A stretch of DNA of 60,560 nt, the filler included, from Candidatus Coatesbacteria bacterium (GTDB lineage Bacteria; JAFGND01), in assembly GCA_016927185.1 (NCBI GenBank). It is 6 parts of 6 records of this genome, joined end to end, with 100 filler letters (N's around TTAATTAATTAA, not from the genome) between each part and the next. Parts side by side here need not be neighbours in the genome. Positions count along the whole stretch, not along the records: positions 24,827 to 35,194 come from JAFGND010000007.1; 5 more parts are not named here. One strand, written 5' to 3'. Below are positions 10,493 to 56,105 of this stretch, piece by piece. The notes beneath the pieces are model-generated. The model was not told the origin of the DNA. It made no database searches and was given only the letters and a program-made list of their open reading frames with translations. A program made the translations under genes and the position numbers. Every line of letters starts with the position of its first letter. Position 1 is the first letter of the stretch.

Positions 10493-10495
10493 TCA

Positions 10496-10915
10496 ATGAA
10501 AGATTCAGGTTATAAATATCTCGAGCAGACTGCTGATGCAAGGATTTTTGTTTGGGCAGATGATTTCATTTCACTTCTTAAAGAAGCTGCACAAGGAGTG
10601 ATTAATTTAATTATAGACACAAAAAAAATTGAACCCAAGGCAGAGATTGATATAGAAATTGAAGGTAAAGATAATGAGGAAATTTTATTTAATTTATTAT
10701 CAGAGATTCTTTATATAATTGATAGCAAGAGCTTCATCATGAAAGAAATAACTATGATAGATATAAATAACGGAACAGCAATTATTCACCTGATTGGTGA
10801 TAATACTGAGAATTATGTTTTCCAGGGAGAAGTCAAAGCAATAACATATCATGATTTTTTTGTAGAAAGGACTTTGAAAGGCAATTATACATCTCAGGTG
10901 GTTGTTGATTTATGA
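10496..10915 (+). CDS. Archease
   Basis: YKYLEQTAD N-terminus, EVKAITYH, C-terminal VVDL; adjacent to rtcB. Confidence 0.92.
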   Translation: MKDSGYKYLEQTADARIFVWADDFISLLKEAAQGVINLIIDTKKIEPKAEIDIEIEGKDNEEILFNLLSEILYIIDSKSFIMKEITMIDINNGTAIIHLIGDNTENYVFQGEVKAITYHDFFVERTLKGNYTSQVVVDL

Positions 10916-11886: not shown

Positions 11887-11986
11887 NNNNNNNNNNNNNN
11901 NNNNNNNNNNNNNNNNNNNNNNNNNNNNNNTTAATTAATTAANNNNNNNNNNNNNNNNNNNNNNNNNNNNNNNNNNNNNNNNNNNN
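11887..11986. other. Artificial contig spacer
   Basis: N run with TTAATTAATTAA; same at 24727-24826, 35195-35294, 46521-46620, 49986-50085. Confidence 0.99.
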
Positions 11987-13495: not shown

Positions 13496-13844
13496 GAAAA
13501 CCTCCTTGATTGCTTCTACAAAACCTTGTAAAAACGTTGTTCCTGTTGAATAAATAATATGTCAAGAAGTAAAACACGGAAACCTCAATCTAGCCATAGA
13601 CATGATGAGCTGAATTATGAGGAAATGATAGTAAAGGAGAGAAGAAATCAGAGACTAAAATGAGTAAAAGCTATTTGCTGAATTACTGTAGATAAATCAC
13701 TTTCAGTGAAGCCTTCTTTTTATCCAACTTAATTCCTTGAATAGCATATCTTTTCATTTCTTGCTATCTGAAATTATCTGAGATTTTCCAAGTCTATTTT
13801 ATTTATATCTTGACATAAAACACGTTCTTTTGAAAGCACAAAAC

Positions 13845-19548: not shown

Positions 19549-19998
19549 CTATTTTCTTTGTGCTGGTTCTACATTAAATTCTACCAGTTTTTTTGTTATT
19601 TCTTCATAAGACCAGAATCCCTGATGCGACTCAAGTATCTTTCCTTTGGGGTCTACAATGAATTGAGTAGGGATTAACCTGATTCCGGCAGACTGGCAAA
19701 GACCTTTGTTTTCACTTTTCCTGACATCAATGAAAGTCACATCCATTACTCCTGCATACTTTACTTTCAAGGAATCCATTACTGGAACCATCTGCTTGCA
19801 GGGAATACATGTTTCAGCACCAAAATCAATGAATTGGTATTTACCAGTAGCCTTGAATACAGTGGCTTCAGAACCATCCTTGTTTTCGCTTGTCTTGTCC
19901 TCTGTCTTCTGATCCATTGTTTTTGAGCCACCGCAACTGCAATCCGACAAATTAAAAGCGACAAGTAGCAAAGTCAATAAAAAATTAATCATCTTCAT
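19549..19998 (-). CDS. Exported thioredoxin-family protein
   Basis: Signal peptide with Cys; DFGAETCIPC; cis-Pro IPTQ; SD before ATG 19998. Confidence 0.88.
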   Translation of the reverse strand: MKMINFLLTLLLVAFNLSDCSCGGSKTMDQKTEDKTSENKDGSEATVFKATGKYQFIDFGAETCIPCKQMVPVMDSLKVKYAGVMDVTFIDVRKSENKGLCQSAGIRLIPTQFIVDPKGKILESHQGFWSYEEITKKLVEFNVEPAQRK

Positions 19999-20009
19999 TT
20001 CCCTCACCT

Positions 20010-20714
20010 TTATTTTACTAAGTTTGAATAAATGAAATAAATACCCGCAATTATTATCAGGACACCTGACACTTTCCTGAACGCATTTGCAGCTTTCATA
20101 TAATGCTTTTGATTTAACCAGCTTTCTACCAGCCCAGTGGAAGTACCTGCTACAAGTAGCGGAAGAATATGTCCCAGAGTAAATCCAAGCATCAGGAATA
20201 AACCATATAAAATCTCCTTCTGTATCGTTATCAAGGCAAGAACTGGAGCAACAAATGCAAAAGTGCAAGGACCTGATACTACACCATAACTCAATCCAAA
20301 GAATAATGCCCCTATATAACCTTTTCTTGAAGTAAGATTAGTGTTCCATGTGGGAAGATTAAATGGAAGAATATCAAGAAGATATATTCCCAGTATCATC
20401 AGAATTGTTCCGATAATTATTGGAATTAAACTGCCAACATCACCTGCTATTCTACCAATCGATGAAGTTATCAATCCCAGGCTGAATATGGTCAGAAATA
20501 TGCCAATACAGAATGTTAGAGATAATTTGAATGCAAAAGGTGTCTCCCTGCTTTCACTCATTGAACTTCCAACAAATCCTATTATCAAAGGAAGGCTGGC
20601 AAGATGACATGGAGAGAATATTACTGATAATATTCCCCAGATAAACAATCCTCCAAAAGCCATTGCAGGACTTGCACTTATCCAGATATTCATATTGTTA
20701 AGGAATTCTGTCAT
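20010..20714 (-). CDS. CcdA/DsbD-like transmembrane electron transporter
   Basis: FSPCHL and GPCTF Cys motifs; 6 TM segments. Confidence 0.9.
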   Translation of the reverse strand: MTEFLNNMNIWISASPAMAFGGLFIWGILSVIFSPCHLASLPLIIGFVGSSMSESRETPFAFKLSLTFCIGIFLTIFSLGLITSSIGRIAGDVGSLIPIIIGTILMILGIYLLDILPFNLPTWNTNLTSRKGYIGALFFGLSYGVVSGPCTFAFVAPVLALITIQKEILYGLFLMLGFTLGHILPLLVAGTSTGLVESWLNQKHYMKAANAFRKVSGVLIIIAGIYFIYSNLVK

Positions 20715-24726: not shown

Positions 24727-24860
24727 NNNNNNNNNNNNNNNNNNNNNNNNNNNNNNNNNNNNNNNNNNNNTTAATTAATTAANNNNNNNNNNNNNNNNNN
24801 NNNNNNNNNNNNNNNNNNNNNNNNNNGCAAGGAGATATTAGAGAACTCTGTTTAAACATA

Positions 24861-24888
24861 GTGCAGGAATGATTTTCCTGCACTTTTT
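24861..24888 (+). terminator. Intrinsic terminator
   Basis: GTGCAGGAA-tgatt-TTCCTGCAC followed by TTTTT. Confidence 0.75.
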
Positions 24889-24889
24889 A

Positions 24890-24905
24890 TGGCATGCAAT
24901 TTGCT
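24890..24905 (+). promoter_or_regulatory. Sigma-54 promoter candidate for the DnaJ-like gene
   Basis: TGGCATGCAATTTGCT (GG-N10-GC). Confidence 0.6.
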
Positions 24906-24928
24906 AATTTTCTATCAGGAGGAAAAAC

Positions 24929-25858
24929 ATGGAAAAGAACTTCTATGAAGTTTTGGGCGTCAAACCTGACGTAAATGAAAAGGATCTGAAGAGAATTTAC
25001 AGGGATCTTGCAAAAACATGCCATCCTGACAGATGCAAAGGTAATAAAGAGATGGAAGAAAGATTCAAACTGATTTCAGAAGCTTATTCAGTGTTAAGCG
25101 ACAAGGAGCAGAGAAAGCATTATGATGAATATCTGAAAATGAGGAGAATGGGATTCAATGGCGGCTTCCAGGAATACAAAACTTATCTTGAACAAGGTGG
25201 AAGACCATTCAATGGAAATGAATCAAATGCTTATTTTGGTGGAGGAAATCCTTTTTATGGTGCCAATAATTTCAGGTCTTCACAAGGACAGGGAAGCGTA
25301 TTCAATATAGAAGATATATTAGGGGGTGACATTTTTTCCAGTTTGCTGGGTGGAAAAGGACAAAAACGTCAGAAAAGAAACCAGATGGTCTTCAGAATGG
25401 ACATACCTTTCTTGATTGCTGCAAAAGGTGGAGATATAAATTTCAATCTTCCGGAACCATTCAACCAGGAAGTAAAACTGAAGGTTCCTGCTGGAATTCT
25501 TGATGGAACTAAAATCAGACTCAAGAACAAGGGACTTGAACAGGTTCAGATAGAATTCTATTCAACTCCCCATCCCATTTTTATAAGAGATGGATATGAT
25601 ATCAGAAGTTCTGTTTATATAGACCTTTTCACTGCCTTACTTGGAGGCAAACAGAATGTCCAGACTATTTGGGGTAGTGCAAATCTAAACATACCAGAGG
25701 GAACTGAACCTGGAACTGTTCTCAGATTGAAGGGAATGGGAGTGAAACCTGTAAACAGACAGGCTGGAGATCATCTCGCAGAAATTAATGTAAGATTTCC
25801 CAAGAATCTTACTGAAAAGCAGAAAGAGATTCTGAGAAGCATTCAACAAGGTGGTTAA
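24929..25858 (+). CDS. DnaJ-class co-chaperone without Zn finger (CbpA-like)
   Basis: J-domain with HPD, G/F-rich linker, DnaJ C-terminal domain. Confidence 0.92.
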   Translation: MEKNFYEVLGVKPDVNEKDLKRIYRDLAKTCHPDRCKGNKEMEERFKLISEAYSVLSDKEQRKHYDEYLKMRRMGFNGGFQEYKTYLEQGGRPFNGNESNAYFGGGNPFYGANNFRSSQGQGSVFNIEDILGGDIFSSLLGGKGQKRQKRNQMVFRMDIPFLIAAKGGDINFNLPEPFNQEVKLKVPAGILDGTKIRLKNKGLEQVQIEFYSTPHPIFIRDGYDIRSSVYIDLFTALLGGKQNVQTIWGSANLNIPEGTEPGTVLRLKGMGVKPVNRQAGDHLAEINVRFPKNLTEKQKEILRSIQQGG

Positions 25859-25942
25859 AACTGAATTCCTTGAATGAAATAAGATTTTTCAGAAACATGT
25901 TTATCTTGACATTTAGGTCATCAAAAACAGACGAGTTTACTT

Positions 25943-26107
25943 ATGAAAAAGTATTCAAGCCCTGTTATAATATCTGAGAATGTCATGGAGAAAGTGACTC
26001 TTGCCTGTGAAGACCACAGCTATTATGTGAGGGCTACCTATCCTTGCTATGATCAGTTCATAGGCGTTGGGAAAGCCGATGCGAATTGCTATAAGCTAAA
26101 CAGTTAG
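25943..26107 (+). CDS. Unannotated 54-aa putative RiPP precursor (MKKYSSPVIISENVMEKVTLACEDHSYYVRATYPCYDQFIGVGKADANCYKLNS)
   Basis: YxxP leader motif followed by a Cys/Tyr-rich core; CTTGACA upstream; 12-nt convergent overlap with adk. Confidence 0.65.
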   Translation: MKKYSSPVIISENVMEKVTLACEDHSYYVRATYPCYDQFIGVGKADANCYKLNS

Positions 26108-26890
26108 TCCGATTTTTTCAAGGGAATCCAGCACACTTTTCTTTACATTTTCCTCGCTGAAATCTTCAAGATGACCTGTTACTTTTGCTATCGGGATATT
26201 ATTTTCCATAAGGAATTCCAGAGATTCAATTGTTTTTTCATAATATTCATTCAATCTTCTGCGAATTTTCTCTTCCATGTCATCTGCTCTCAGAACGACT
26301 TCAGCACCATCATTATAGCAGAATTTGCCATTCAGGGGAGGTTTGTAATCTATGTGATAAACAGTCTTGCATACTGGGCATATTCTCCTGCCAATTGTTC
26401 TCGAGATTATCCTCTCATCATCATTCTCCACAAGCAGAAGGAAACTAATGCTTGTCTTCATTTCACTGCAAAGATCAAGCAAGAACCTGCATTGAGATTT
26501 GGTTCTTGGATAACCATCAAGAACAAACATGCATGCATTTCCCTGCAAGAAATAATGCTTGAATACTGAATTAGTAATGTCATCTGGAACAAAAAGCCCT
26601 TGATAGCTATACCATTTGCTTCTCAATCCAAGCAGAAGTTCGTCCTTTTCAACTTCCTTGAAATCAGCTCCATGAAGTATTTTCATTGCTTCTTCATCAT
26701 CAAGAATAGTTTTTTCAGCATATTCTGTTATATCCTTTTCTATTCCAAGTTCATTGAAAGCTTTTATGCATGATCTGAACAGGTCTCCAGTAGAGAGCTG
26801 TTTCAGATTAAACAGATCCTTCAGAACGTCAATTCTTGGCTGCTTACCAGCACCTGATTTGCCCGTGACAATTACATTGCAAATATCCAT
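26096..26890 (-). CDS. adk: Adenylate kinase family protein
   Basis: GKSGAGK P-loop, LSTGDLFR, LDGYPRT, Zn-type lid CPVC...CYND. Confidence 0.88.
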   Translation of the reverse strand: MDICNVIVTGKSGAGKQPRIDVLKDLFNLKQLSTGDLFRSCIKAFNELGIEKDITEYAEKTILDDEEAMKILHGADFKEVEKDELLLGLRSKWYSYQGLFVPDDITNSVFKHYFLQGNACMFVLDGYPRTKSQCRFLLDLCSEMKTSISFLLLVENDDERIISRTIGRRICPVCKTVYHIDYKPPLNGKFCYNDGAEVVLRADDMEEKIRRRLNEYYEKTIESLEFLMENNIPIAKVTGHLEDFSEENVKKSVLDSLEKIGLTV

Positions 26891-27003
26891 ATTCACCTTC
26901 TTTTGTTCTTGTTTATCTCGAATTTTCATAGAAATTTGGCAATATCTTTTTGCACTAAAGAGTATTGACTTAGTTTTGCTTATATGAATATTCAAGCAAG
27001 AAT

Positions 27004-27534
27004 ATGATAGAAAACTTTATGAAAGGGATTTTCATTCTGGCAGGTTTTGCCTTGTTTTTCTCTGGATGGAGGCTGTATCCTTTCCTTATATATGGAATAA
27101 GCATATATACATTATGGTCATTGCTTGGCAAGTTTTCTTTTCTAAATATATCAACATGGTTAAAGGTTTTGATATCCTTTATAGGTGGATCAATTTTGTC
27201 TTTGATGCTTGCTTTTTTCAACAAGATAGCATCATTCACTATTGGTTTTCTGACTGGTTTTATATTGTTTCCATCTTTGAATTTGATTCAACCTGAAACA
27301 TTTTTTTTCTGGATTATCAGAATAATACTATCAATAATATTGGGGATATTGTTACTCAGGAATTTAAAGTACTTCGTAATGGGCTTGACAGGTTTTTGGG
27401 GCAGTTATTTATTGCTCTCACCATTTGGATATGAGAAACATTCATATATTCTCTTTATTTTATCAGCAATCAGCTTCATTTTTCAGTTTACCTGGAAGCG
27501 AATCAGGGATAGGAAAAAGAAAATTGCTGAATAG
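27004..27534 (+). CDS. Polytopic membrane protein
   Basis: ~6 TM segments. Confidence 0.75.
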   Translation: MIENFMKGIFILAGFALFFSGWRLYPFLIYGISIYTLWSLLGKFSFLNISTWLKVLISFIGGSILSLMLAFFNKIASFTIGFLTGFILFPSLNLIQPETFFFWIIRIILSIILGILLLRNLKYFVMGLTGFWGSYLLLSPFGYEKHSYILFILSAISFIFQFTWKRIRDRKKKIAE

Positions 27535-28825
27535 GATTTTATGCATATTTTCTGCAATACTGACAGGGATAATCACCTTCCTTTATCCTTATCATATCTC
27601 TTTGGTATTGCTGGCAATCCTGTGCATCTATCTCTTATATCATAAACCTGTCTATTTCCTTTATCTATCTTTCATATTGTTTCCTCTTGAGGAAGTAAAA
27701 TATGGAGGTTTCAGTTTTTCAAAATATGGTGGGGTTCTTTTTCTGACTGCATACATTATATTCAAGATAAGAAGCAGGGAAAGATTCCTTGAAATACCAT
27801 CTTCAATAATTTTGACACTATCACTTTTCATTGCATTCACAATGTTCTCTCTTCAATTAAGTTACAATCTTGACTATTCTGCCATAGGCTTCATAAGACT
27901 TCTTATAATGGCAGGTTTTGCAATTGCAACAGCTGATATATTATCTCGAACAAGGGACTTCAAGGGAGTTGCCCTGTCATGGTTTATTCCAGCTATATTC
28001 TGGGCTGCATTGGGAGTATTCCAGTCAAAAACCGGAAATACCATTGCAAGTCTGGGATTTGATCCAAACTGGGAAACTTTTATTGAGATAGAAGATAGCT
28101 TGAGGGCATCAGGTCCTTTCAGCCATCCTAATTATTTTGCATTATATCTTCTGGTTGCATTTGCATCAGGCATTTATTTATCAGTTTTTTTGAAAACCAA
28201 ACTTAAGTATATAATTCTTCTTGGTTTAATAGTGATTCTTGCTGGTATATATTACAGTATGGCAAGAAGTGTTTTCTATGGAATGGCAGTTTTCCTTGTC
28301 CTCTGGCTATATAGAAAAATCTGGCCTTTGCTTCTTATCGGAGTTATAATAGGATATACAATAATCATGACTTTGGATATTGATGAAGCCTACAGTGGAG
28401 AAAAACCCAGAGGATATTCAAGAGTTTCAAGAAAAGCAGCATTGATTTCAGGTTTCAATATGATAAAGTCCAATCCAATAAGAGGAGTTGGCTGGCTTTC
28501 ATTCAAGGATTATTATCTCAAATATTCATCAGCCAAGTCTAGATTACTCCGCTGGGGAACGATAATGGGACATAACATGTTTCTTGAAACAGCTTCTGAA
28601 AGCGGAATTCCTGCATTATTGTCACTAATAGTCTTGTTAGGGCTTATTTTCCATTATTCAGGAAAAGCGTCTTTTGAAAACTGGTTATGGGCATCATTAT
28701 TAGCAGGGATACTCGTTTTCGGGCTTTTCAATCCTCTCATTCTGAAGAAAACCTTCTGGATACCGATGGCACTTGCAATAAGATCAGGATTAAAAAAGGA
28801 GAACAATACTTATGCTTTTTGTTGA
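27524..28825 (+). CDS. O-antigen ligase family protein
   Basis: RASGPFSHPNYFA, SMARS, PIRGVG, GHNMFLETASESG; TTG start inferred. Confidence 0.85.
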   Translation: MLNRILCIFSAILTGIITFLYPYHISLVLLAILCIYLLYHKPVYFLYLSFILFPLEEVKYGGFSFSKYGGVLFLTAYIIFKIRSRERFLEIPSSIILTLSLFIAFTMFSLQLSYNLDYSAIGFIRLLIMAGFAIATADILSRTRDFKGVALSWFIPAIFWAALGVFQSKTGNTIASLGFDPNWETFIEIEDSLRASGPFSHPNYFALYLLVAFASGIYLSVFLKTKLKYIILLGLIVILAGIYYSMARSVFYGMAVFLVLWLYRKIWPLLLIGVIIGYTIIMTLDIDEAYSGEKPRGYSRVSRKAALISGFNMIKSNPIRGVGWLSFKDYYLKYSSAKSRLLRWGTIMGHNMFLETASESGIPALLSLIVLLGLIFHYSGKASFENWLWASLLAGILVFGLFNPLILKKTFWIPMALAIRSGLKKENNTYAFC

Positions 28826-29717
28826 AAAGGAAACCTTCAAGAATTTCGCTGTCCCTGATGAATATTTCTCATTACTTCTGGAGGATTGTGAGAATTATCT
28901 AATCAAGGAGTTCCCATTCAAGATTTGTGATATTGAAGTCAATCTCCTGTCCATATGGGGAACTGAATCGCATAAGTTACTGAAGGATACGTATTCATCA
29001 TACTGCATGAAACAGAAATCTCCTGCCTGTTTTCCTTTATATATTCATATAGACAGGGAGTTAAAAATAAAGCATGAGGATTTCCAGAGCATTTGTGAAT
29101 TCTCAGATGAAAGTGTTTTCTATTATGTCAGATGGGATTTCATATTAAAGCTTGATCTGAAGGAGGAAATTGGTCAGCTTGTTATTTGCCAGCAGAATCT
29201 TGAAGAAAAGGGTGAAGCTGATAATCTAGCAGTATTCAATGAGATAATAGACAAAATAATGCATCTTCTTTACAGCCTGATAATAATCAAGAATAAAGGT
29301 TTCTTGATAAAAGGTTGTGGGCTTGTTCACGCTAATCAGGGAATTCTGGTATTGAATGCAGACAAGAATCTATCGAAGAACTTTGCTCAGCATGAAAACA
29401 TTATGCTGTTTTCAAAAAACCTGCTTGGTGTCAGATTGATAGAAGATTCTCATTATCTTTTCAGCACTCCCTTCGGTCTCATGTCAGCTAGTGATACTCA
29501 TTCATACAGTAAATTACCATTGACCTATATTTATTACAACAAGCCGGATAATGCGGAAGATGATTTGCCTCCATTCGAAAGGCTTTTGAAGAATGTATAT
29601 TTCATTTCCCAGTCAAGGTCTTTCAAGGAGATGGTTTTGGAGAATGTAATCAGCTGCTGCAATGAAGTTACTTTTACGGACAATCTCTCTGAAACTCCCT
29701 TGATAGATTTATTTTAA
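28812..29717 (+). CDS. HprK-related kinase-like protein lacking the catalytic His and Walker A
   Basis: RWDF...YSLIIIKNKGFLIKGCGLV...LGVRL...LFSTPFG...LPL...LLKNV follows the HprK-related scaffold, but there is no GxxGxGKS/T. Confidence 0.5.
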   Translation: MLFVEKETFKNFAVPDEYFSLLLEDCENYLIKEFPFKICDIEVNLLSIWGTESHKLLKDTYSSYCMKQKSPACFPLYIHIDRELKIKHEDFQSICEFSDESVFYYVRWDFILKLDLKEEIGQLVICQQNLEEKGEADNLAVFNEIIDKIMHLLYSLIIIKNKGFLIKGCGLVHANQGILVLNADKNLSKNFAQHENIMLFSKNLLGVRLIEDSHYLFSTPFGLMSASDTHSYSKLPLTYIYYNKPDNAEDDLPPFERLLKNVYFISQSRSFKEMVLENVISCCNEVTFTDNLSETPLIDLF

Positions 29718-29718
29718 A

Positions 29719-30324
29719 ATGAAGTTCATTGTAAACCTGGGAGATTTCCTTTTCAAGTATAGAAGCTATACTCCGATCATTCCCTTGATAATAATGCTTG
29801 CCTTCTGTAAATATAATGTTTCAGCATTCATTATCGGAATATTTGTCTCTCTGGCAGGGCAAATACTGAGATTATGGGCATTAAGTTATGCAGGTGGTGC
29901 AACAAGAACTGTTTCAATGGGAGCACCAGAGCTTATTACAGGAGGACCTTTTGGGCATGTCAGAAATCCCCTTTATCAAGGAAATCTTCTCCTGACGACA
30001 GGCATACTTATATCTTCCAATACTCTTTTCCCTTATTATCTGATAGCAGGAATTTTTCTTTTTTTTATACAGTATATGTCAATAATCCTGAAGGAGGAAT
30101 CCTTTCTTGCAAGCCAGTTCAAGGAGGAATTTGTTACCTATTCAAAGGCAGTACCAAGATGGGGCTGGAATTTCAGGAATTTCAATATTTCAAAAAAACC
30201 AATAATAAAAGGTGTTTTTGAACTTACAAAAATTGAAAGAAGAAGCCTTCAGTCATTGATTATTGTTTATCTGCTTTTTGCTATTATCTTCTTCATGCAG
30301 GGCAAGGATTATTGGTGGAGATGA
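29719..30324 (+). CDS. Isoprenylcysteine carboxyl methyltransferase family membrane protein
   Basis: LRLWA, LITGGPFGHVRNPLY, EESFL...Y...VPR. Confidence 0.9.
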   Translation: MKFIVNLGDFLFKYRSYTPIIPLIIMLAFCKYNVSAFIIGIFVSLAGQILRLWALSYAGGATRTVSMGAPELITGGPFGHVRNPLYQGNLLLTTGILISSNTLFPYYLIAGIFLFFIQYMSIILKEESFLASQFKEEFVTYSKAVPRWGWNFRNFNISKKPIIKGVFELTKIERRSLQSLIIVYLLFAIIFFMQGKDYWWR

Positions 30325-31354
30325 AATCCAGGAAAGAAAATACTTCCTTTTCCACCTTTTCATAACCAAGCTTTCTAATGTTGCCCTCTGGAGATTCTAT
30401 TGCGAAGCTTTTTCCTGAAGGAGGTAGCCATTCATCAGGACTTACATCACCATACAATGTCAAGGTAGGCTTTCCTAAAGCAGAAGCAATATGATATGTT
30501 GCAGTATCTGTTCCAATCAAGCAACTTGAATTAAAAAGTATTCCCATCAATTCCCTTATATTTGTCTTTGGAATGAAATTACCCCTGCCATGAAGATGTG
30601 TTTGCAGGCGATCTCTCAAGGCTTCCTCTTTAGGTCCCCATACTATCAGGGGCTTATTCCCTGTCTTCATTTCAATGGAAATTATCAATCTTGCAAATAA
30701 TGAAATAGCCCATCTTCTCCGTATATCCCTGTGAAGAGGATGTATGGCAACAGGGTTTTCACAATCAGCAACTTCTTTTATTATACTTGCTCCTTTTTTC
30801 TTCTCTTCATCAGATATTTCCAGAAGAGGTAACCAGACTGGAGTTTCAAGATTGAATGCCTTCAAGACAGAAGAATATTTTTCCCATTGCTGACCCTTTT
30901 CAATTGCCTCTGTTTTTATGTTATACAAGAAGCTTGTTCTGGAGCCTCTTATCAATGGATGATCTGCCCCAATTGTAACCTTGCATAATAAACAGGCAAG
31001 AATATCGCTAGTGAGAGAATGAGAAACTGTATTCATAACTATCCCAACATCAAAGCGCTTCCTGAAAAGAAAACTGTTACTGCCCCATTTGCATGGGTGG
31101 GTATGAAAGGCTAATACTTCCTTGAAAAGCGGATTTTCATGCATGATATCTTTTGTATATGGTCTGGCAAGCAAATAGAACTCTGCATCAGGAAAATTGT
31201 CATTAAGTGATTTAATTGTCGGTAATATCTGTATCAGATCTCCTATCTGATCATGCTGCTTTATTATAAGTATTTTCCTGACATCTTTTAATTGTTTTGA
31301 TTTCTGACTGAGAAGATACTCAAGTACTTTAACTAATATCTCTTTAGAGTTCAT
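30293..31354 (-). CDS. GT9 (ADP-heptose transferase family) glycosyltransferase
   Basis: ILII...IGD, RRW, GTDTATYHIASALGKP. Confidence 0.92.
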   Translation of the reverse strand: MNSKEILVKVLEYLLSQKSKQLKDVRKILIIKQHDQIGDLIQILPTIKSLNDNFPDAEFYLLARPYTKDIMHENPLFKEVLAFHTHPCKWGSNSFLFRKRFDVGIVMNTVSHSLTSDILACLLCKVTIGADHPLIRGSRTSFLYNIKTEAIEKGQQWEKYSSVLKAFNLETPVWLPLLEISDEEKKKGASIIKEVADCENPVAIHPLHRDIRRRWAISLFARLIISIEMKTGNKPLIVWGPKEEALRDRLQTHLHGRGNFIPKTNIRELMGILFNSSCLIGTDTATYHIASALGKPTLTLYGDVSPDEWLPPSGKSFAIESPEGNIRKLGYEKVEKEVFSFLDFISTNNPCPA

Positions 31355-31905
31355 TTAGCGAGTTTGTTCTTGAATCTTTCAAACTCGCTGTATATGCAAC
31401 CACAATAATTCTGCCTGTAAAGATCCATTCTCTTGCTTTCCTCAATGCCCCATTTCCAGTATTCCCTCCAGTCTTCATAATGGAAACTTATTTCAAGTTC
31501 ATCAGAAATTCGCTCTGCAATAGATTTTATCAGGTCGTGTTTCTGGTACTTGCTGTAGAGGAGGGTTGTTGAGAAAGAGCTGAAGCCCTTATTTTTAGCA
31601 GTCAATGCAGTATATCTTATACGAACAGAATAGCAATATGAACATCTTTGTTCAACATCCGAGACAGTGTTTCTCAGGAAATCAAGATAATCATGACTGC
31701 TTTCTTCACAAACATGGAAATCAAGAATTCGAGAAGCTTCTCTTAAAGTATTACGCCGCTTCAGGAATTCCATCAATGGATGTATATTTGGATTGAAAAA
31801 AAATCCTGTTACATTAATTTCCTTAGCCCTCAGGTCACTCAATGGACCTAGCAGGCATGGGGCACAACAAACATGCAAGAAAACTTCTTTTTTCTTGTCA
31901 CTCAT
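31351..31905 (-). CDS. queH: Epoxyqueuosine reductase
   Basis: LHVCCAPC, FNPNIHP, RCSYCY, YRQNYCGCIYS. Confidence 0.95.
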   Translation of the reverse strand: MSDKKKEVFLHVCCAPCLLGPLSDLRAKEINVTGFFFNPNIHPLMEFLKRRNTLREASRILDFHVCEESSHDYLDFLRNTVSDVEQRCSYCYSVRIRYTALTAKNKGFSSFSTTLLYSKYQKHDLIKSIAERISDELEISFHYEDWREYWKWGIEESKRMDLYRQNYCGCIYSEFERFKNKLAK

Positions 31906-32443
31906 TTTCTTCAGGCTTGAGGATTGCTATATGAGGAAGATTCCTGTAATACCCATTAAAATCGAGTCCATATCCTACAACAAAATGATTTGGTATGAAA
32001 AATCCGCTGTAATCAACATGAACATCTATCTCCCTCTCAACATCTTTTATGAGAAGAGAACAGATTTTTATGGATTTTGGCTCCCTGTACAATAGATGCT
32101 TGTATAAATAATCCAGCGTTAAGCCTGTATCAAGAATGTCTTCAAGAATTATTATGTCCTTGCCTTTAATCTCATTCTTGATGTCATAAAGAAGCCTTAT
32201 TGTTCCCTTGCTTTTAATGCCCTGATAGCTCTCAACTGCCATAAACTCTATTGTATGAGGAATTGTAAGCTTTCTTATGAGATCTGCAAGGAAAATAACC
32301 CCACCTTTCAGTATAGTTACAAAAATTGGAGTAGTGTTTTCGTAATCCTTTGAAATCTCTCTGGCAAGTTGTGAAACCTTCTCATTTATCTGGCTTGCTG
32401 AAATAAGCACATCTGTTATCTTGTAACCAGTTATATTAACCAC
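31898..32443 (-). CDS. hpt: Hypoxanthine phosphoribosyltransferase
   Basis: ILKGG, ILEDILDTGLT, FVVGYGLD, RNLP. Confidence 0.96.
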   Translation of the reverse strand: MVNITGYKITDVLISASQINEKVSQLAREISKDYENTTPIFVTILKGGVIFLADLIRKLTIPHTIEFMAVESYQGIKSKGTIRLLYDIKNEIKGKDIIILEDILDTGLTLDYLYKHLLYREPKSIKICSLLIKDVEREIDVHVDYSGFFIPNHFVVGYGLDFNGYYRNLPHIAILKPEENE

Positions 32444-32454
32444 ATCGTTACTCC

Positions 32455-33417
32455 TTACTTTATATTAAGAACACAGCGGAAGCCTGTTTCATTGTTGTAT
32501 CTGGATGGAGACATCTTCTCCCTTACAAATGATTTGCACATTCCTGGATGGGAAAACCAGCTTCCTCCCCTTATAACCTTCATTTCTCCCCTTGATGGAC
32601 CTGTGGGATTCTTTTCCTCCATGTTTTTATATGCATCTGCTGCATACCAGTCTGAAGTCCATTCCCAGACATTTCCAGCCATTTCATGCACTCCATATGA
32701 AGAAGCACCGTTCTTGAATGCATCAACTGGATTGGTGAAGTCAAAACCATCTGAATTATCAATATATGGTTGTTTTCCAAGTCCGGTATTCATTTTTCCA
32801 TTTTCATAACTGTTTCCCCATGGGTATTCAAAACTACCTGCTCCTCTTGCAGCTTTTTCACATTGGGCTTCAGTTGGAAGTTCGCATCCTGCCCATTTTG
32901 CATATTCATGTGCATCATTGAAGGAAACATGGACAACAGGATGGTTCAGTATATCCTTTATGGAAGAAAATTCTCCTGCTGGATGAGCCCAGTTTGCTCC
33001 ATCCAGTTTTTTCGCTTCCTTTCCATCATATACATAAGCATATCCGTTTTTCTCGGCAGTTGTTTTATATCCTGTTTCATTTATGAATTTGGCAAATTGC
33101 TTATTTGTTACTGGATATAAATAAATATAGAAATCTGATACAAAAAAGATTTTTCCCTGTTTCATGAAGTCATCTCCGAAATTGTCAGGAAGTTTTATTG
33201 AAAGATTCTTTACTAATTCATTTTTCAGGGCATCTATCTGTTCCCTGGTTCCCCCTAATTCTAATTTCCCTTCATTAACAAGTACCATCTCGGCACCATC
33301 TTTTTCATTTGTTCTTCTTGCTTCCCTAGAAAGCTTCTTTTGAGTCCTTGCTGCACAGGAAAACAGCATAATCATTAAAAACAGGCAACAGGTTTTTTCT
33401 AATATCTTGTTTTTCAT
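32455..33417 (-). CDS. FGE-sulfatase (SUMF1) domain lipoprotein
   Basis: Lipobox LFSC; HPVVHVS, LPTEAQ.EKAARG, MAGNVWEW, RGGSW, GFRC. Confidence 0.9.
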   Translation of the reverse strand: MKNKILEKTCCLFLMIMLFSCAARTQKKLSREARRTNEKDGAEMVLVNEGKLELGGTREQIDALKNELVKNLSIKLPDNFGDDFMKQGKIFFVSDFYIYLYPVTNKQFAKFINETGYKTTAEKNGYAYVYDGKEAKKLDGANWAHPAGEFSSIKDILNHPVVHVSFNDAHEYAKWAGCELPTEAQCEKAARGAGSFEYPWGNSYENGKMNTGLGKQPYIDNSDGFDFTNPVDAFKNGASSYGVHEMAGNVWEWTSDWYAADAYKNMEEKNPTGPSRGEMKVIRGGSWFSHPGMCKSFVREKMSPSRYNNETGFRCVLNIK

Positions 33418-33661
33418 AAGAAGAATTCGCTTCAAAACATATAAAATCTTGCAAGAAAAAATTTTTCTAGTATGATACTTTTTTCACTTGACATTAATAT
33501 CTTCTAAAAATAGATATTGCTTAAGTTAGTATTTTGCATTTAATCTGTTAAGGAGAAACTGAATTCAGGGACTCAGGCACGACTTAAAGTATTGATAGAA
33601 AAGAATTTAGGAATTATTTTACAAGAAGTTTTAACTCTATAATCTCAGGAAGGAGGTTCTA

Positions 33662-34423
33662 ATGAAGAAGGCTATCTTGGTTCTATTTTTACTAAGCCTA
33701 TTTTCAACTTTAGCCTACGCTGAAATAAGAACTGTTCAGGGAGAAATATTTGGTTATTATGGCTGACCCTATTGCCCAAGTGCAGTTAAGGCACTTAGAT
33801 TATTGTGGCAGGAAAAAGGTTATGATTTAACTCCAATAGCCTGGTGGCGCAATTATTCAGGAAACTATTATAGCCAGCGTTCTAGCTATTATGCAGTTTC
33901 TGGAGTTCCTACAGCAGTATTTGATGGATTAGGTAAAGTAGTTGGTGGAGGTTCAGATACTAATAATGTTAGTGGTGTTCTCAACAGATACAGGCAAGAA
34001 TATGACAAACGCAAGGCAATCAGCTCTCCACTTTGGATAACTATTATTCCTGAATGGATAACGAAGAATGTAAAAGGACAGGCAAGAATAAGTGTTACAG
34101 TTAGAGAAACAGTTACAACAACTAATAACAAGATCTGGGTAGTTATTCTTGAAAAGAATGCTGGAGGAACATATAAACTTTTCCATTGCGGAAGGGAAAG
34201 AATTCTCTATGAGGATTTCACCTTGACTCAAGTAGGACAATCCCAGAATTACAAGGTTGAGTTTGATGTGCAATCAGGCTGGAATCCAGATAATCTGGCA
34301 ATAGCAGTTTTCGTTCAAAGTGACGCGAATAAGGAAGTAATCCAGTCAGGTTGGTATGACCAGTTCTCACAAGCAAATATCAAACAGGCAACCTGGGGTG
34401 GGATAAAGAGACTTTATAAATAA
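33662..34423 (+). CDS. Exported Omp28-like selenoprotein (UxxC), 253 aa; TGA 33764-33766 = codon 35
   Basis: AAGGAGG SD; signal peptide (AYA|E); GEIFGYYG-U-PYCP in frame with track ORF 33803-34423 (YAVSGVPTAVFDG, DNLAIAVFVQ...KEVIQ); hairpin 11 nt after the TGA. Confidence 0.88.
33778..33796 (+). promoter_or_regulatory. Putative bacterial SECIS element
   Basis: AAGTGC-AGTTAAG-GCACTT, starting after an 11-nt spacer from the in-frame TGA. Confidence 0.78.
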
Positions 34424-34430
34424 GTAACAG

Positions 34431-34452
34431 GGAGATATTTTTTAATATCTCC
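34431..34452 (+). terminator. Intergenic hairpin between the two selenoprotein genes
   Basis: GGAGATATT-tttt-AATATCTCC. Confidence 0.6.
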
Positions 34453-34494
34453 TGCTTATTTTAGTATTACATTAACATTAAAGGAGGTGATAAA

Positions 34495-35031
34495 ATGAGA
34501 ATATTTATGGCTTTAATATTGTTGTATGGTTTTGCATTTGCAGCACCTGAAATTGGTGATCCTGCTCCAGATTGGACACTTCCAAATCTTGACAATAACC
34601 AGAATTACCACCTTTATGATTATATGGGAAAAGTAGTATGGATTAACTGGTTCTGGACAGGCTGACCATCTTGCCGCTCGGAGTTACCGAGTCTCAATAC
34701 TCTTGCAGGAGAATACAAGCAATCAAAACCATTATGTGAATTCTTTGTTATCTGTTCATTTGACGCAGCAAATAATTGCAAAAGTTACAGGGATCAGAAT
34801 CCAAACTTGATTTTCGTGTCTGATTATCCATCAAGAGCAGTTTATATAGCTTACAGACATGGTTCAACAAACTATGTTCCAATGAATTACTGCCTGAGAA
34901 AGGACTTGACAGTTCACTATTATGCATTTGGATATAATCAAAATACTGCCAGACAGAAATTCGAGGAAGCATACGAATATACCAAAATCAAGAAAACCAC
35001 ATGGGGTGGCATAAAATCAATGTATAGATAA
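34495..35031 (+). CDS. Exported TlpA/AhpC-TSA-like redoxin selenoprotein (UxxC), 178 aa; TGA 34663-34665 = codon 57
   Basis: AAGGAGGTG SD; signal peptide (AFA|A); IGDPAPDWTLPNLD...YMGKVVWINWFWTG-U-PSCRSELPSL; YVPMNY cis-Pro; in frame with track ORF 34807-35031. Confidence 0.9.
34677..34691 (+). promoter_or_regulatory. Putative bacterial SECIS element
   Basis: CTCGG-AGTTA-CCGAG, starting after an 11-nt spacer from the in-frame TGA. Confidence 0.78.
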
Positions 35032-35036
35032 AACTT

Positions 35037-35063
35037 AAGCTGCATTTTGAAGAATGCAGCTTT
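35037..35063 (+). terminator. Terminator after the second selenoprotein gene
   Basis: AAGCTGCATT-ttgaag-AATGCAGCTT. Confidence 0.7.
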
Positions 35064-35127
35064 AATATCTTAAAAATTTCCTTGACTAAAACTTGTTTAT
35101 TAAAATATGTGAATTCAGTTCAATTGA

Positions 35128-35194
<67 letters not shown>

Positions 35195-35294
35195 NNNNNN
35201 NNNNNNNNNNNNNNNNNNNNNNNNNNNNNNNNNNNNNNTTAATTAATTAANNNNNNNNNNNNNNNNNNNNNNNNNNNNNNNNNNNNNNNNNNNN

Positions 35295-41926: not shown

Positions 41927-42709
41927 CTATCTTTTTTCAACAGTGAATTCCTCGTACTCTGATGTGATCTCAAAACCTATTGATTTATAACACTTTATAG
42001 CAGCATGATTATCCTGTTTTACATTCAATCCTATATGAGTGACATGCTTGAGTAGATTCTTGCAAAGCATTGCTGTAACTGAAGTTCCAAAACCCCTTGC
42101 CCTGTAATCAGGATGAGTTGTAATATTTCCGAGTGCAGCAACCTTGTAGTCCTTCGAGAAAACATGAACACCTGCAATGCTTTCAAGTTTTCCGTCCTTC
42201 TTAAGTCCATAATACATACCAGTTTGAAGCATCTTGAGTTCGAACCAGTTACCAGGATAGCTCGTGCTGTAAAGATCAAGAATTTCTTTTCTGTCATCCA
42301 TATTCAATTGAATAACCTCATTACTTTCAATAGATTGCACGATTTCCTTGTTCACAAGAGACATCTTGTAATGTTTTCCATGAGATACAAGTTTGAATTT
42401 TTCAGAGAGAATATCATACAATCCAGTTGATATATGCATATAGAAGGCAGAGGGAAGAAAATTCTGTACTGACAACAGGAATTCCTTAGCTGAAAGACCT
42501 CCTGATGAAAGAAACAGGAATGTTGGAGTTGAAAGTCCTGTGAACAGAAGCGCAACTTCCTGTAATTTATCATTTTGCAGTATTCCGTACCAGCTCGTAT
42601 ATTTCCAGAAATAATCATCAAGATCCCCGATTTCATATATATGAAGGAATGTATCTTTTCTCAAGAATTTCTCTAGTGTGCTCTTATCGTGTAATGTTAT
42701 GATTTCCAT
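41927..42709 (-). CDS. GNAT acetyltransferase (FR47-like)
   Basis: LGNITTHPDYRARGFG, NHAAIKCYKSIGF. Confidence 0.9.
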   Translation of the reverse strand: MEIITLHDKSTLEKFLRKDTFLHIYEIGDLDDYFWKYTSWYGILQNDKLQEVALLFTGLSTPTFLFLSSGGLSAKEFLLSVQNFLPSAFYMHISTGLYDILSEKFKLVSHGKHYKMSLVNKEIVQSIESNEVIQLNMDDRKEILDLYSTSYPGNWFELKMLQTGMYYGLKKDGKLESIAGVHVFSKDYKVAALGNITTHPDYRARGFGTSVTAMLCKNLLKHVTHIGLNVKQDNHAAIKCYKSIGFEITSEYEEFTVEKR

Positions 42710-43139
42710 GAACTCTCTCCCAGTTTTCAATATCACCTTTCACTATATGAAAGACTAAATTAGCCTTTATATTTCTTATTCCCTTAAGTTCTTGATATTT
42801 ATTAAAGTCCCTTATTCTCAGTTTTTCAAGAAGATGGTTGTATTCATAAAGGATCTGTCCGTCATTTACTGGAATTGCATCATGTAATTCATTGGCATGC
42901 AGAATTTTACTGAAATCAAATCCGAAATCTCTTCTTATTGATTCTTCATGTATTGTAACAAGATAAGAACCAATTGCTTGCAGTGGTTCACAATATTCCA
43001 TGAATCGTGCAAGCTGAGGATGATTTCTGTAAGCTTTTGTCTTTCCAGAAATTACAGCCTGCGCAAGAAGCGATTCCCTCCACAGGGCTGTAAGTCCTTT
43101 TGTATCAAGATATTCAGGGCTTATTGACCAGAGCCTCAT
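42684..43139 (-). CDS. Pyrimidine dimer DNA glycosylase / T4 endonuclease V-like protein
   Basis: MRLWSISPEYLD..GL.ALWRE, YRNHPQL. Confidence 0.88.
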   Translation of the reverse strand: MRLWSISPEYLDTKGLTALWRESLLAQAVISGKTKAYRNHPQLARFMEYCEPLQAIGSYLVTIHEESIRRDFGFDFSKILHANELHDAIPVNDGQILYEYNHLLEKLRIRDFNKYQELKGIRNIKANLVFHIVKGDIENWERVHGNHNITR

Positions 43140-43181
43140 GAAAATGCTTTCTCGTATTTTATTAACAGGCAGCAAGTTACA

Positions 43182-43655
43182 TCATTCATTTTCACCCTTG
43201 AAATCTGATACCTTGCAGGAAATTTCCAGAATATCTATCCTTATTATTGTAACTGTTTCAGACATTTCATCAGTGAATTCAAATACTTTCCCTGAAACGT
43301 GTTCAGTAATAAGGGAAAGGGCATGCTTTTTCTCTTCAGTATCATCAACAAAGAATGCCCTGCCGTTTGCAATAATGCTTTTATACTTGATGCTTCCCTT
43401 GCAAGGTACATCAGGGACCAGATAATCTTCCATTATGTCAAATTCTACACAGACAATGTTATTCTTTTTTAGAATATCGATTTTTTTCCCGACATGTGCA
43501 CAATGGAAGTAAATGGAATTATTTTCATAACCGAAATTGACAGGAACAATGTATGGATGATTATCTTCTGACATCCCAATCCTGCAAACCATTGTTCCTG
43601 CAATTATTTCATCAATAATTTTCCTGTCAGTTATTTCCTTGTCTTTGCGTCTCAT
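43182..43655 (-). CDS. Pyridoxamine 5'-phosphate oxidase family (NimA-like) flavoprotein
   Basis: MRRKDKEI, PYIVPVNFGY, IYFHCA..GKK. Confidence 0.9.
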   Translation of the reverse strand: MRRKDKEITDRKIIDEIIAGTMVCRIGMSEDNHPYIVPVNFGYENNSIYFHCAHVGKKIDILKKNNIVCVEFDIMEDYLVPDVPCKGSIKYKSIIANGRAFFVDDTEEKKHALSLITEHVSGKVFEFTDEMSETVTIIRIDILEISCKVSDFKGENE

Positions 43656-46427: not shown

Positions 46428-46742
46428 ACTTTCTCCTTCTTTTAGTGACTGAAAAAACCTTAAAATACGTGTTCGACAAGCTTGCCATTTCATCTCCTTT
46501 TTACTTTCTTACACAATATANNNNNNNNNNNNNNNNNNNNNNNNNNNNNNNNNNNNNNNNNNNNTTAATTAATTAANNNNNNNNNNNNNNNNNNNNNNNN
46601 NNNNNNNNNNNNNNNNNNNNATAAATATCCTATGTATTGCTTTAAATATTTTTTTCATGATTTAATTCATTAAAAGGTTAGATTTAGCTTGCCAAAAAAA
46701 TAAGATTTTATAATAAGGGCAAAAGAAAGGGGGAATTAGAAG

Positions 46743-49882: not shown

Positions 49883-50086
49883 ATATGCTTTCATCATTCG
49901 AGAAGAGATTCAGACTTATTCTTTTTGGTTTTATAATAGTGTTGTTGTTTGTTATTTTTGGGAACATTATATTATACAACAGAACNNNNNNNNNNNNNNN
50001 NNNNNNNNNNNNNNNNNNNNNNNNNNNNNTTAATTAATTAANNNNNNNNNNNNNNNNNNNNNNNNNNNNNNNNNNNNNNNNNNNNT

Positions 50087-50815
50087 GGACAGGAAATCTG
50101 GAAAGTTCCCTTGAGTGGGGAGACAAGAAATGGAGTAACAATAGCTAATAATTCCATTTATTACATAGATAATGGCAATTTCATTTGCAGGGACTTTAGC
50201 AGTAATGAGAAATGGAGATATGATGGAGTGGGAAATAATCATCGCCAGGCAATATCTGCGATCCAGATAAATGGAGATATAATAGTACCAGGCAGTCAAT
50301 GGCTTTTTTGTTTTTCTCCAGAAGGATCCTTGAAATTCAGGATAACAATGGCAAATTTCAACACAATAATAACAGATAAGAACAGCAATATATTTGCATA
50401 TTTACATGCATATGGTTTATATGATTTAGCTTGTTATAACTCACAGGGTGATACATTATGGACAAGGATATTGGATAATTACACTTCTGGTTTTGAAATG
50501 TGCCTGAATGTTAATGGTGACATTGTTTTAGGATATCATTCTATAATTTACTGTTATTCTACCAAAACTGGTTTCTCTTCTTCCACTTCCTCTTCCTACC
50601 TCCCCTCTCAATCTCTTTCTGCAAGCCCTAACCCCTTTTCAACCCGCTTGTCAGTTTCGCTATCTTCCTCAGGGGCAATCTATTCCCTGATAGGTCAGCT
50701 TATAATGAAGTTGGATAAAGGCAAGCATTCTGTTGACACAAGTAAATGGAGAGAGGGAGTTTATATAATAAAGTCTGGCAAGGAATGCAAGAGGGTGGCA
50801 AAAGTAAGGAAATAA
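50087..50815 (+). CDS. C-terminal part of a beta-propeller protein with short T9SS type A-like CTD (5' truncated)
   Basis: Frame is open from the contig start; SPNPF...GVYIIK tail. Confidence 0.8.
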   Translation, partial: GQEIWKVPLSGETRNGVTIANNSIYYIDNGNFICRDFSSNEKWRYDGVGNNHRQAISAIQINGDIIVPGSQWLFCFSPEGSLKFRITMANFNTIITDKNSNIFAYLHAYGLYDLACYNSQGDTLWTRILDNYTSGFEMCLNVNGDIVLGYHSIIYCYSTKTGFSSSTSSSYLPSQSLSASPNPFSTRLSVSLSSSGAIYSLIGQLIMKLDKGKHSVDTSKWREGVYIIKSGKECKRVAKVRK

Positions 50816-54402: not shown

Positions 54403-55968
54403 TTATTTTATAACTGTAAATCTTCTATTCTGGATAATCTTGCCATTCATTTTTAATACAATATGATAGACTCCTGCAGCACAGGCTTCCATATTTAATA
54501 TTCTTTGTAATTTACCAGTTTCCAGGGCTTTTTCCTTATGTTCTGCTATCCTTTTCCCGCAAATATCATAAATGGTAATTATAACCTCATCATTCTTTCT
54601 TGAACTGTATATCACATTGAGTTTATCAAATACTGGATTTGGATAAATTCTCAATCCTCCCCAGGCAGGCAGTGCTTTCCTGAAAGTCTTGAAACCTGTG
54701 CTGCGTGAAGTAATTGCATATGTATCAGTTCCTCTTCCAGAAACATTCGCATGAACTGCTTTTCCAGTTGCAAGAGCATAATCACCAGTTGGGGAAATAG
54801 ATGAGCTGAACATTGAACCTGGTGAATTGACTGAAAATGCCAATTGCTGGTTCTCTATATCAAGAATGGCTACCTCATTCTCATCAGCAGAAGTTCCCCA
54901 TGTTGTTGTAATGACATAATTTCCAGCCTGGTCGCTGCATATGCTGGAAGGTACGTTCTGTCCGCTTCCTCCTGAAGCTGGGTAATCATAAGTCCATACA
55001 GGAGTGCTACTTGATGAATTATAATATACGAATTTCCTGGTATTGGCTGAAATATTCCATAATTGTCCGAAAACTCTTGAACCATCATCGTTTAATCCCA
55101 CAGCATAAAAATATGATCCACTACCGCTTGCTGTCCATTCCCTGTTATAAGCAGTTCCATTCCATTTATAGAGATACAAAGAACCGAATCCTATAGCTAT
55201 ATAATCTCCATTACCGCTTATTGCATGAGCATCAACTGACGCTGGAGTATTACCGGATCCTCTTTCCACTCCTGTTTCAAGATCCCATACATAAAACTTT
55301 GTTGAGCAACCCATATATCCGTATTTCGAGTTCTTTGAAATCCTTATCTGCCTGAAGGAAGTTTCGCTTCCTGATGGATATAGTGTATATAGGGGAGTTG
55401 CAGAATCAGGCCTGAATACAATTAATGCAACCTGTTGTCCAATTTTTGCACCAGCGATTATATATGATCCATTCCAGTTTGTTTCAACATCAGATATTGC
55501 AGCAGAACCTCCATCATATATCCAGTCTGGAGTTGAAGAGCTGGATGAAGAGAACTTGTAAAGCTTGTTTCTACCCTGGACTATTGCAGCATAAACATTT
55601 GCATTCCATGCACCTGTACACATTGGATAGGTACTGTTATCGAATGCATAAGTTACTGCAGGGGTATTAGAGTTATATGGGAAAACGTACAATGAAGGGC
55701 TGTTCAATGCAAAAGAGACAAAATCATATGCTGTCCCGTCAAGTCTTCCAACTTCACATTTCTGACCTATCTGAGATGCATCATGATATGTCCATGATAA
55801 TTCATAATTGCCTGCGGAAACCCAGGTTGTTTTCGAATTATCCAAAACGCATGAATAGTCACTGCTAAAGTCTTTGATAAAAGAACCTGTTTCATTTATT
55901 ATAGCAATCCTGCTGTTTTGTGCAAAAAGTGCTGTTGAAAGAATGAAAATCAAGAAAAAATACTTCAT
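54403..55968 (-). CDS. Secreted beta-propeller-like protein with canonical T9SS type A CTD
   Basis: Signal peptide; IYPNPV...IYDICGK...GVYHI...FTVIK. Confidence 0.85.
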   Translation of the reverse strand: MKYFFLIFILSTALFAQNSRIAIINETGSFIKDFSSDYSCVLDNSKTTWVSAGNYELSWTYHDASQIGQKCEVGRLDGTAYDFVSFALNSPSLYVFPYNSNTPAVTYAFDNSTYPMCTGAWNANVYAAIVQGRNKLYKFSSSSSSTPDWIYDGGSAAISDVETNWNGSYIIAGAKIGQQVALIVFRPDSATPLYTLYPSGSETSFRQIRISKNSKYGYMGCSTKFYVWDLETGVERGSGNTPASVDAHAISGNGDYIAIGFGSLYLYKWNGTAYNREWTASGSGSYFYAVGLNDDGSRVFGQLWNISANTRKFVYYNSSSSTPVWTYDYPASGGSGQNVPSSICSDQAGNYVITTTWGTSADENEVAILDIENQQLAFSVNSPGSMFSSSISPTGDYALATGKAVHANVSGRGTDTYAITSRSTGFKTFRKALPAWGGLRIYPNPVFDKLNVIYSSRKNDEVIITIYDICGKRIAEHKEKALETGKLQRILNMEACAAGVYHIVLKMNGKIIQNRRFTVIK

Positions 55969-56105
55969 ATGAACTCCTTTCGTTTGCATCAGAATATTTT
56001 CATGCAGAATAATGTCCAGAAATTTCTTTAAAACAATCTTGTTTTATTTCTTGACATGCAATAAAAAAAAATGCTTTCCGTCTAATACAATTTAAGGAGG
56101 CTTAT

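Follow-up and report, generated by a model that had tools for sequence, protein, structure and literature searches.

The two in-frame UGA codons and their genes

A 60,560-nt stretch of DNA from a Candidatus Coatesbacteria bacterium (assembly GCA_016927185.1), hereafter the window, carries two consecutive genes, gene 1 and gene 2, each with an in-frame UGA codon followed by a small RNA hairpin. These hairpins, which are probable selenocysteine insertion sequence (SECIS) elements, are the subject of this analysis. The window consists of separate contigs chained by five linkers, each made of 44 N, TTAATTAATTAA and another 44 N, so that adjacency across a linker is artificial. Both hairpins lie on one 10,368-nt piece (24827-35194). 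The G+C content of the DNA is ~36%. For comparison, one scan of genome contigs provided four loci (L001 to L004), which together comprise 63 kb and 2126 TGAs; L001 is a GC-rich contig of a distantly related metagenome-assembled genome.

Gene 1, read with TGA as selenocysteine (Sec, U), contains a single U and no further stop. It starts with a hydrophobic N-terminal signal peptide (about residues 1-20) and ends in the tail ATWGGIKRLYK. The Shine-Dalgarno-like GGAAGGAGG ahead of its ATG speaks for translation of the gene segment 5' of the UGA. A search against NCBIfam gave NF045500, "Omp28-related selenoprotein", as the best match, with 62.7 bits under a cut-off of 200 bits; judged by its sequence, gene 1 is a distant relative of this family and not a member by its curated test. 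The Pfam matches to Omp28 (31.6 bits) and to thioredoxin are both weak. According to excerpts of two sources, NF045500 corresponds to the UxxC family "hypothetical protein GOS_C" of an ocean-metagenome study (PMC2398784, PMC13188914). Gene 1 shares with that family the UxxC motif and the thioredoxin-like N-terminal part, but it is shorter and ends in TWGGIKxxYK, whereas more distant relatives end in a sorting domain of the type IX secretion system (T9SS). The AlphaFold model of gene 1, built on a 10-row alignment, has a mean predicted local distance difference test (pLDDT) score of 59.7, with values below 50 in the UxxC region.

At the position of the gene-1 UGA, the homologues in L003 (CPPC) and L002 (CGPC) have a Cys, and five paralogues in L001 have a UGA. 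All nine database homologues of gene 1 (10 matches minus the window's own fragment) start just 3' of the Sec site, as expected where gene callers stop at TGA. A tblastn match spans residues 18-231 and crosses the UGA site.

Gene 2 likewise forms a single open frame when its TGA is taken as Sec. It has a hydrophobic N-terminal signal peptide (about residues 1-16), and its C-terminal tail reads TTWGGIKSMYR. It passes the Pfam cut-offs for both AhpC-TSA (PF00578; 44.3 bits, cut-off 26) and Redoxin (PF08534; 37.8 bits, cut-off 26.6). Its UGA coincides with the first Cys of CxxC in the homologues P0033, P0026 and P0032, and with a UGA in the redoxin of L001; CxxCxxE is present in 114 of the 150 best representatives. 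One homologue fragment, P0041, terminates exactly at the Sec site, which fits the pattern of gene callers stopping at a Sec-UGA. A search for proteins of near length, with gene 2 as the query, gave no match. UxxC selenoproteins of PF00578 and PF08534 (Prx-like thiol:disulfide oxidoreductase and Redoxin) are already listed as known in the part of PMC13188914 that deals with them. Compared to these, gene 2 has its UxxC at the same CxxC site, but it carries an unusual C-terminal tail, and its identity to the nearest Sec-containing relative with readable DNA is no more than 32%.

The closest full-length relative of gene 2, P0016 (51% identity), has a Trp at the Sec-aligned position, in WEDC. This Trp may reflect translation of a TGA by its source under a code in which TGA stands for Trp.

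Anatomy and rarity of the hairpins

An earlier note on this DNA had described both TGAs as being followed by exactly 11 nt and then by a perfect stem with a loop starting with AGTTA, and this can be read directly in the sequence (Table 1). The loop of hairpin 1 starts 17 nt 3' of the UGA and that of hairpin 2 starts 16 nt 3' of it. Hairpin 2 has an optional sixth pair, G.U (34676/34692), which reduces its spacer to 10 nt. Arithmetic on the coordinates places the first A of the loop at the third codon position in gene 1 and at the second in gene 2, in agreement with the different phases that had been claimed.

Table 1. Coordinates of the two genes, their hairpins and accompanying features along the window
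Feature	Position	Strand	Remarks
Shine-Dalgarno-like GGAAGGAGG	33648..33656	+	5 nt upstream of the gene-1 ATG
Gene 1	33662..34423	+	Omp28-related thioredoxin-fold protein, 253 aa with TGA=U, motif G-U-P-Y-C
In-frame UGA, gene 1	33764..33766	+	codon 35; first residue of UxxC
Hairpin 1	33778..33796	+	6-bp perfect stem AAGUGC/GCACUU, 7-nt loop AGUUAAG
Hairpin 1, 11-nt spacer	33767-33777		
Hairpin 1, 5' arm	33778-33783		
Hairpin 1, loop	33784-33790		
Hairpin 1, 3' arm	33791-33796		
Terminator-like hairpin	34430..34453	+	T-rich tail; between gene 1 and gene 2
Shine-Dalgarno-like AAGGAGGUG	34481..34489	+	upstream of the gene-2 ATG
Gene 2	34495..35031	+	AhpC/TSA redoxin, 178 aa with TGA=U, motif G-U-P-S-C-R-S-E-L-P
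In-frame UGA, gene 2	34663..34665	+	codon 57; first residue of UxxC
Hairpin 2	34676..34692	+	5-bp perfect stem CUCGG/CCGAG (34677-34691), 5-nt loop AGUUA, closing G.U pair
Hairpin 2, 11-nt spacer	34666-34676		
Hairpin 2, 5' arm	34677-34681		
Hairpin 2, loop	34682-34686		
Hairpin 2, 3' arm	34687-34691		
Palindromic terminator-like hairpin	35037..35062	.	3' of gene 2; placed on the minus strand by the scan
Linkers	11887-11986, 24727-24826, 35195-35294, 46521-46620, 49986-50085		

Over the two strands of the window together, three perfect hairpins with a stem of 5 bp or more have a loop starting with AGTTA, and two of them are hairpins 1 and 2. Among the 2846 TGA trinucleotides of the window, 92 are followed by a perfect hairpin of at least 5 bp at a spacer of 9-13 nt, two of the 2846 by such a hairpin with an AGTT loop, and two match the literal pattern (TGA, 11 nt, stem, AGTTA loop). 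In 300 simulated first-order Markov sequences of 60,060 nt, the literal pattern was found at a rate of 0.017 per sequence, with one hit in five sequences and two hits in none. TGA terminates 21 of the 59 open reading frames (ORFs) of the window, and the motif follows none of these 21 stops.

Rfam at gathering score returned only a tRNA. With an E-value threshold, the region 33600-35100 gave eight weak matches (E 0.058-6.1), all far under gathering score and none to a SECIS family; one of them, HOTTIP_4 (34667-34827), overlaps hairpin 2.

Selection at the RNA level

Codon usage was counted over 16,212 codons from 51 ORFs of the window. The stem of hairpin 2 is written in the rarest codons of the window, namely CGC (2.5% of Arg), UCG (3.5% of Ser) and CCG (5.3% of Pro). 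Its loop AGUU lies in the codons GAG-UUA (Glu-Leu) of the conserved motif CxxCRxELP (family-wide, CxxCxxELP), which is shared by the Cys homologues. With its rarest-codon stem flanking Glu-Leu-Pro, gene 2 offers a clean case of a probable SECIS laid over a conserved protein motif. The 16 codons 3' of each UGA were subjected to 20,000 synonymous recodings with the window's own codon usage. For gene 2, a hairpin of the native class with an N-G-U loop arose in 0 of the 20,000 recodings, and any hairpin as stable as the native one in 32. The support at the RNA level is strong for hairpin 2, and suggestive for hairpin 1 taken alone. The 3' arm of hairpin 1 coincides with a conserved Ala-Leu codon pair (codons +9 and +10), and the same codons form the 3' arm in the L001 paralogues.

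Comparison with a distantly related locus

L001 contains six UxxC genes with an in-frame UGA (at 722, 1808, 2984, 3794, 7650 and 8773), five of them Omp28-like and one a redoxin. A T9SS C-terminal sorting domain is present in all six, and an N-terminal signal peptide in five, the start of the gene at 8773 being uncertain. The six genes lie within about 10 kb (623-10731).

The L001 redoxin shares 32% identity with the protein of gene 2. After its UGA and 10-11 nt comes the hairpin GCGCGG-AGUUG-CCGCGC, in which all six pairs are kept relative to hairpin 2. Between the two, one compensatory change converts U-A to G-C, with the amino acids also changed (Ser to Ala and Ser to Arg), and one G.U is replaced by a G-C pair. 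The five Omp28-like paralogues of L001 have the stem (C)CAGC/GCUG(G) with the loops CGUGC, GGUGC, CGUGU or CGUGGC, located 20-21 nt after the UGA. Compared to them, the hairpin of gene 1 differs in helix register and loop despite the common Ala-Leu 3' arm. Altogether, all eight UxxC sites, two in the window and six in L001, have a candidate hairpin whose small loop contains G-U near its start. L001 has AGUUG as well as YGUGY loops, at two spacings; the machinery of one organism thus appears to accept both.

Omp28-like and redoxin genes are paired both in L001 and in the window, which is suggestive of a conserved redox module at the surface. A full-text literature search found no paper joining Omp28 with a selenoprotein, or a selenoprotein with T9SS and C-terminal.

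Fit to published SECIS models

The consensus model of bacterial SECIS elements used by bSECISearch is reportedly due to Zhang and Gladyshev in 2005. The legend of Fig. 2 in PMC13188914 describes such a bacterial SECIS as follows: the loop spans 3-9 nt, the stem 4-16 bp and the distance from UGA to loop 16-37 nt; one of the first two loop positions is a G, in most cases with G or U next; and the minimum free energy does not exceed -7.5 kcal/mol. Both hairpins of the window are inside the ORF directly 3' of the in-frame UGA, which replaces a redox Cys. They agree with the model in loop size (7 and 5 nt), in stem (6 bp in hairpin 1; 5 bp, or 6 with G.U, in hairpin 2) and in the G at loop position 2 followed by U. 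The distances from UGA to loop (17 nt for hairpin 1, 16 nt for hairpin 2) are at the bottom of the permitted range, as is the stem length, and the N1/N2 loop positions (A and A) of both hairpins cannot pair. Hairpin 2 has a free energy of -7.6 kcal/mol alone and -9.5 kcal/mol within 44 nt.

The minimal SECIS of Escherichia coli fdhF is said to have been defined by Liu et al. in 1998. According to a passage of PMC8659212, the upper stem-loop of the E. coli element comprises 17 nt and is situated 11 nt from the UGA; its U17 is bulged and contacts SelB, and G23/U24 are in the loop. This agrees with the 11-nt offset and the SelB-read loop G-U given in the earlier note. Both window hairpins share with it an upper stem-loop of ~17 nt, the 11-nt offset (10 in gene 2 if the G.U is counted) and the loop G-U. 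The loop G is located 18-19 nt after the UGA in the window, compared to 20 in E. coli, and the loop sequence differs. Bacterial SECIS elements are described as hard to model in an excerpt of PMC12013277.

The hairpins as probable SECIS elements of the described type

We consider it highly probable, at roughly 85%, that both hairpins are genuine SECIS elements of the ordinary, described type, behind the Sec-UGA of two exported UxxC redox proteins with a thioredoxin fold. The hairpin signal would then be real and not of a new kind, and the annotation would be corrected from two genes split at UGA to one selenoprotein of 253 residues and one of 178 residues. A SECIS hairpin is located at the mRNA entrance of the ribosome. 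With the UGA in the A site, each hairpin would come to this entrance, and a tethered SelB.GTP.Sec-tRNA(Sec) would decode the UGA as Sec ahead of release factor 2. SelB probably binds both hairpins in this way, with Sec inserted at both UGAs.

Several observations weigh against this assignment. The energy of hairpin 1, -5.6 kcal/mol alone and -6.4 kcal/mol in a 44-nt fold, is above the -7.5 limit, and its region reaches -14.5 kcal/mol only with extra, unsupported pairings in a 60-nt fold. In the recoding of gene 1, a hairpin of the native class with an N-G-U loop arose in 449 of 20,000 cases (2.2%), and one as stable as the native hairpin in 2866. In neither hairpin does the 5' arm contain a bulged U like that of E. 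coli. The folding free-energy z-scores of 44-61-nt pieces range from -0.18 to -1.42 and are not significant alone, as expected for stems of 5-6 bp. The conservation evidence consists of one orthologue and one compensatory pair, and a two-sequence shuffle control was uninformative (242/500). The general published model is also unspecific, as it passes 187 of the 2846 TGAs of the window and 119 of 282 in L001. An N-G-U descriptor that was written after the sites had been seen, so that its specificity figures are partly circular, gave four hits in L001, all of them Sec sites (4/6), and in the window both Sec sites plus two out-of-frame TGAs. Finally, no selA, selB, selD or tRNA-Sec gene was found in the window; the ability of the organism to insert Sec is therefore presumed.

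The shared AGUUA loop

The earlier note had gone further and taken the hairpins as a lineage-specific SECIS consensus usable for finding more selenoproteins. Spelled out, this proposal combines an AGUUA loop with a short stem that lacks a bulge and lies exactly 11 nt 3' of the UGA; a SelB co-adapted to it would do the reading, and the pattern would suffice to uncover the rest of the selenoproteome of this organism. SECIS elements are very probable, as argued above, but the added consensus appears unlikely to us. In its favor, both Sec sites of the window share the spacer, the start of the loop and the stem length class, in different codon phases. If only N-G-U were required, a chance match at the other three loop positions would have a probability of ~0.02 by base-composition arithmetic, which is suggestive at n=2. 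Moreover, the literal pattern gives no false hits at the 2846 TGAs of the window or the 2126 of L001-L004.

However, the consensus is drawn from two sites and fits the general bacterial model. Protein constraint had been dismissed as an explanation of the common loop; no common peptide is indeed possible in different phases, but the AGUU of gene 2 corresponds to conserved Glu-Leu codons and recurs as AGUUG in L001, and it is therefore not lineage-specific. The other loops of L001 at 20-21 nt indicate that a single SelB accepts various loops and spacings.

As a search tool, the consensus did not perform as proposed: the literal pattern gave no hits at the TGAs of L001-L004 and thus nothing new in these 63 kb of related loci. 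A relaxed pattern (AGTT, spacer 10-12) recovered one of the six Sec sites of L001 together with two out-of-frame false hits in L002 and L003. The suggested covariance-model check fared no better. The model R1, built from the two redoxin SECIS elements, recovers both training sequences but misses gene 1 at E<=10; it gives three weak hits (E 0.78-4), one of which, L001:1808, is a true Sec site, whereas L001:9026 and L004:3446 fall outside coding frames. The AGUUR hairpins of three sequences were also aligned with MAFFT, but this alignment was set aside, being out of structural register with loops of 7 and 5 nt.

The AGUUA consensus is accordingly a weakly supported small-sample hypothesis. The most suitable reading of the common AGUUA is N-G-U-N-N; protein coding accounts for part of the additional identity, and the remaining identity may be a small-sample coincidence or a mild preference. 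For selenoproteome mining this calls for caution, as a consensus from two sites that is sharp in one window matches only one of six Sec sites in a related locus.

A more elaborate proposal, to which we give somewhat less credit still, is that the hairpins form a distinct minimal SECIS class, with a bulge-free 5-6-bp stem, an A-G-U-U-R loop and the shortest spacing that the ribosome allows. Recognized by the SelB of an uncultured T9SS-bearing lineage, such a class would mark a conserved, surface-directed pair of an Omp28-like UxxC protein and a UxxC redoxin, whose T9SS domain is here swapped for the tail TWGxIKxxY[KRQ].

Alternatives without selenocysteine

Three further explanations dispense with Sec altogether, and all of them are very improbable compared to SECIS elements of the described type. 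The TGAs could be real stops in pseudogenes or split genes, with the hairpins arising by chance or as leftover structure. Both genes are indeed split by gene callers (P0006 of 206 aa and P0017 of 74 aa), and the folding z-scores are not significant. Against this, distant homologues have the same in-frame UGA at the CxxC position and both UGA flanks are conserved; moreover, Shine-Dalgarno-like sites and signal peptides lie 5' of the UGAs, the stem of gene 2 is made of rare codons, and the pattern itself is rare. We therefore regard real stops as highly unlikely.

Slightly less credible again is a genome-wide reassignment of UGA to Trp or Gly (codes 4 and 25), or a SelB-independent read-through, either of which would leave the hairpins irrelevant. 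The Trp of P0016 at the aligned position could be taken in this sense, but TGA is a regular terminator in the window (21/59 ORFs), no domain-bearing ORF of the window is otherwise interrupted by an in-frame TGA, and both UGAs are exactly at a redox Cys position. Equally hard to credit is an action on transcription or mRNA stability, as attenuator or terminator, instead of decoding: a consensus scan lists hairpin 1 as terminator-like (6-bp stem, tail AGATTATTGT), but the ORFs run on for 218 and 121 codons past the hairpins, hairpin 2 lacks a T-rich tail, such tails are common at this G+C content, and clear terminator-like hairpins are situated 3' of each gene.

A common C-terminal tail and other features of the window

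Both putative selenoproteins end in a common tail, (T)TWGGIK(R/S)(L/M)Y(K/R), encoded at 34391-34420 and 34999-35028 and present in no other ORF of the window. The tail is also found in homologues of both families, as TWGSIKK[LM]YQ in P0007-P0009 and in P0016, P0033 and P0036 as well, and more distant relatives have a T9SS sorting domain in its place. NCBIfam gave no match to the two 30-residue C-terminal tails, and the C-terminal 40 residues of gene 1, used as a protein query, matched nothing but the fragment from the window itself. The TWGxIKxxY tail is possibly an undescribed sorting or anchoring signal. Por_Secre_tail T9SS sorting domains occur in three other ORFs of the window (12221-13495, 50111-50815 and 54403-55989); the organism thus appears to have type IX secretion, with its two selenoproteins being without that tag. 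The six-gene island of L001 together with the shared tail may be of more interest than the hairpins themselves.

A screen for further in-frame TGAs in the window gave no convincing one. Three candidates were rejected: 42684-43655 (-) comprises two genes with different Pfam domains, in 12221-13603 (-) the TGA is upstream of the real start, and in 58060-59019 (+) the read-through tail is junk.

A truncated tRNA gene is located at 35134-35194, where it is cut by the contig end. It scores 47.1 bits in Rfam over model positions 7-64 and is missed by ARAGORN. Its anticodon loop contains CAU with three G-C pairs below, and it resembles an initiator/Met tRNA, not a tRNA-Sec.

Elsewhere in the window (19549-20714, minus strand), two ORFs in different frames, one with a thioredoxin domain and the other for a DsbD/CcdA-type membrane protein, share ~260 nt. 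A frameshift, a wrongly called start or the fusion of both into one redox module could account for this overlap. This pair adjoins genes for a low-molecular-weight phosphatase, an ArsP-type permease and an ArsR regulator.

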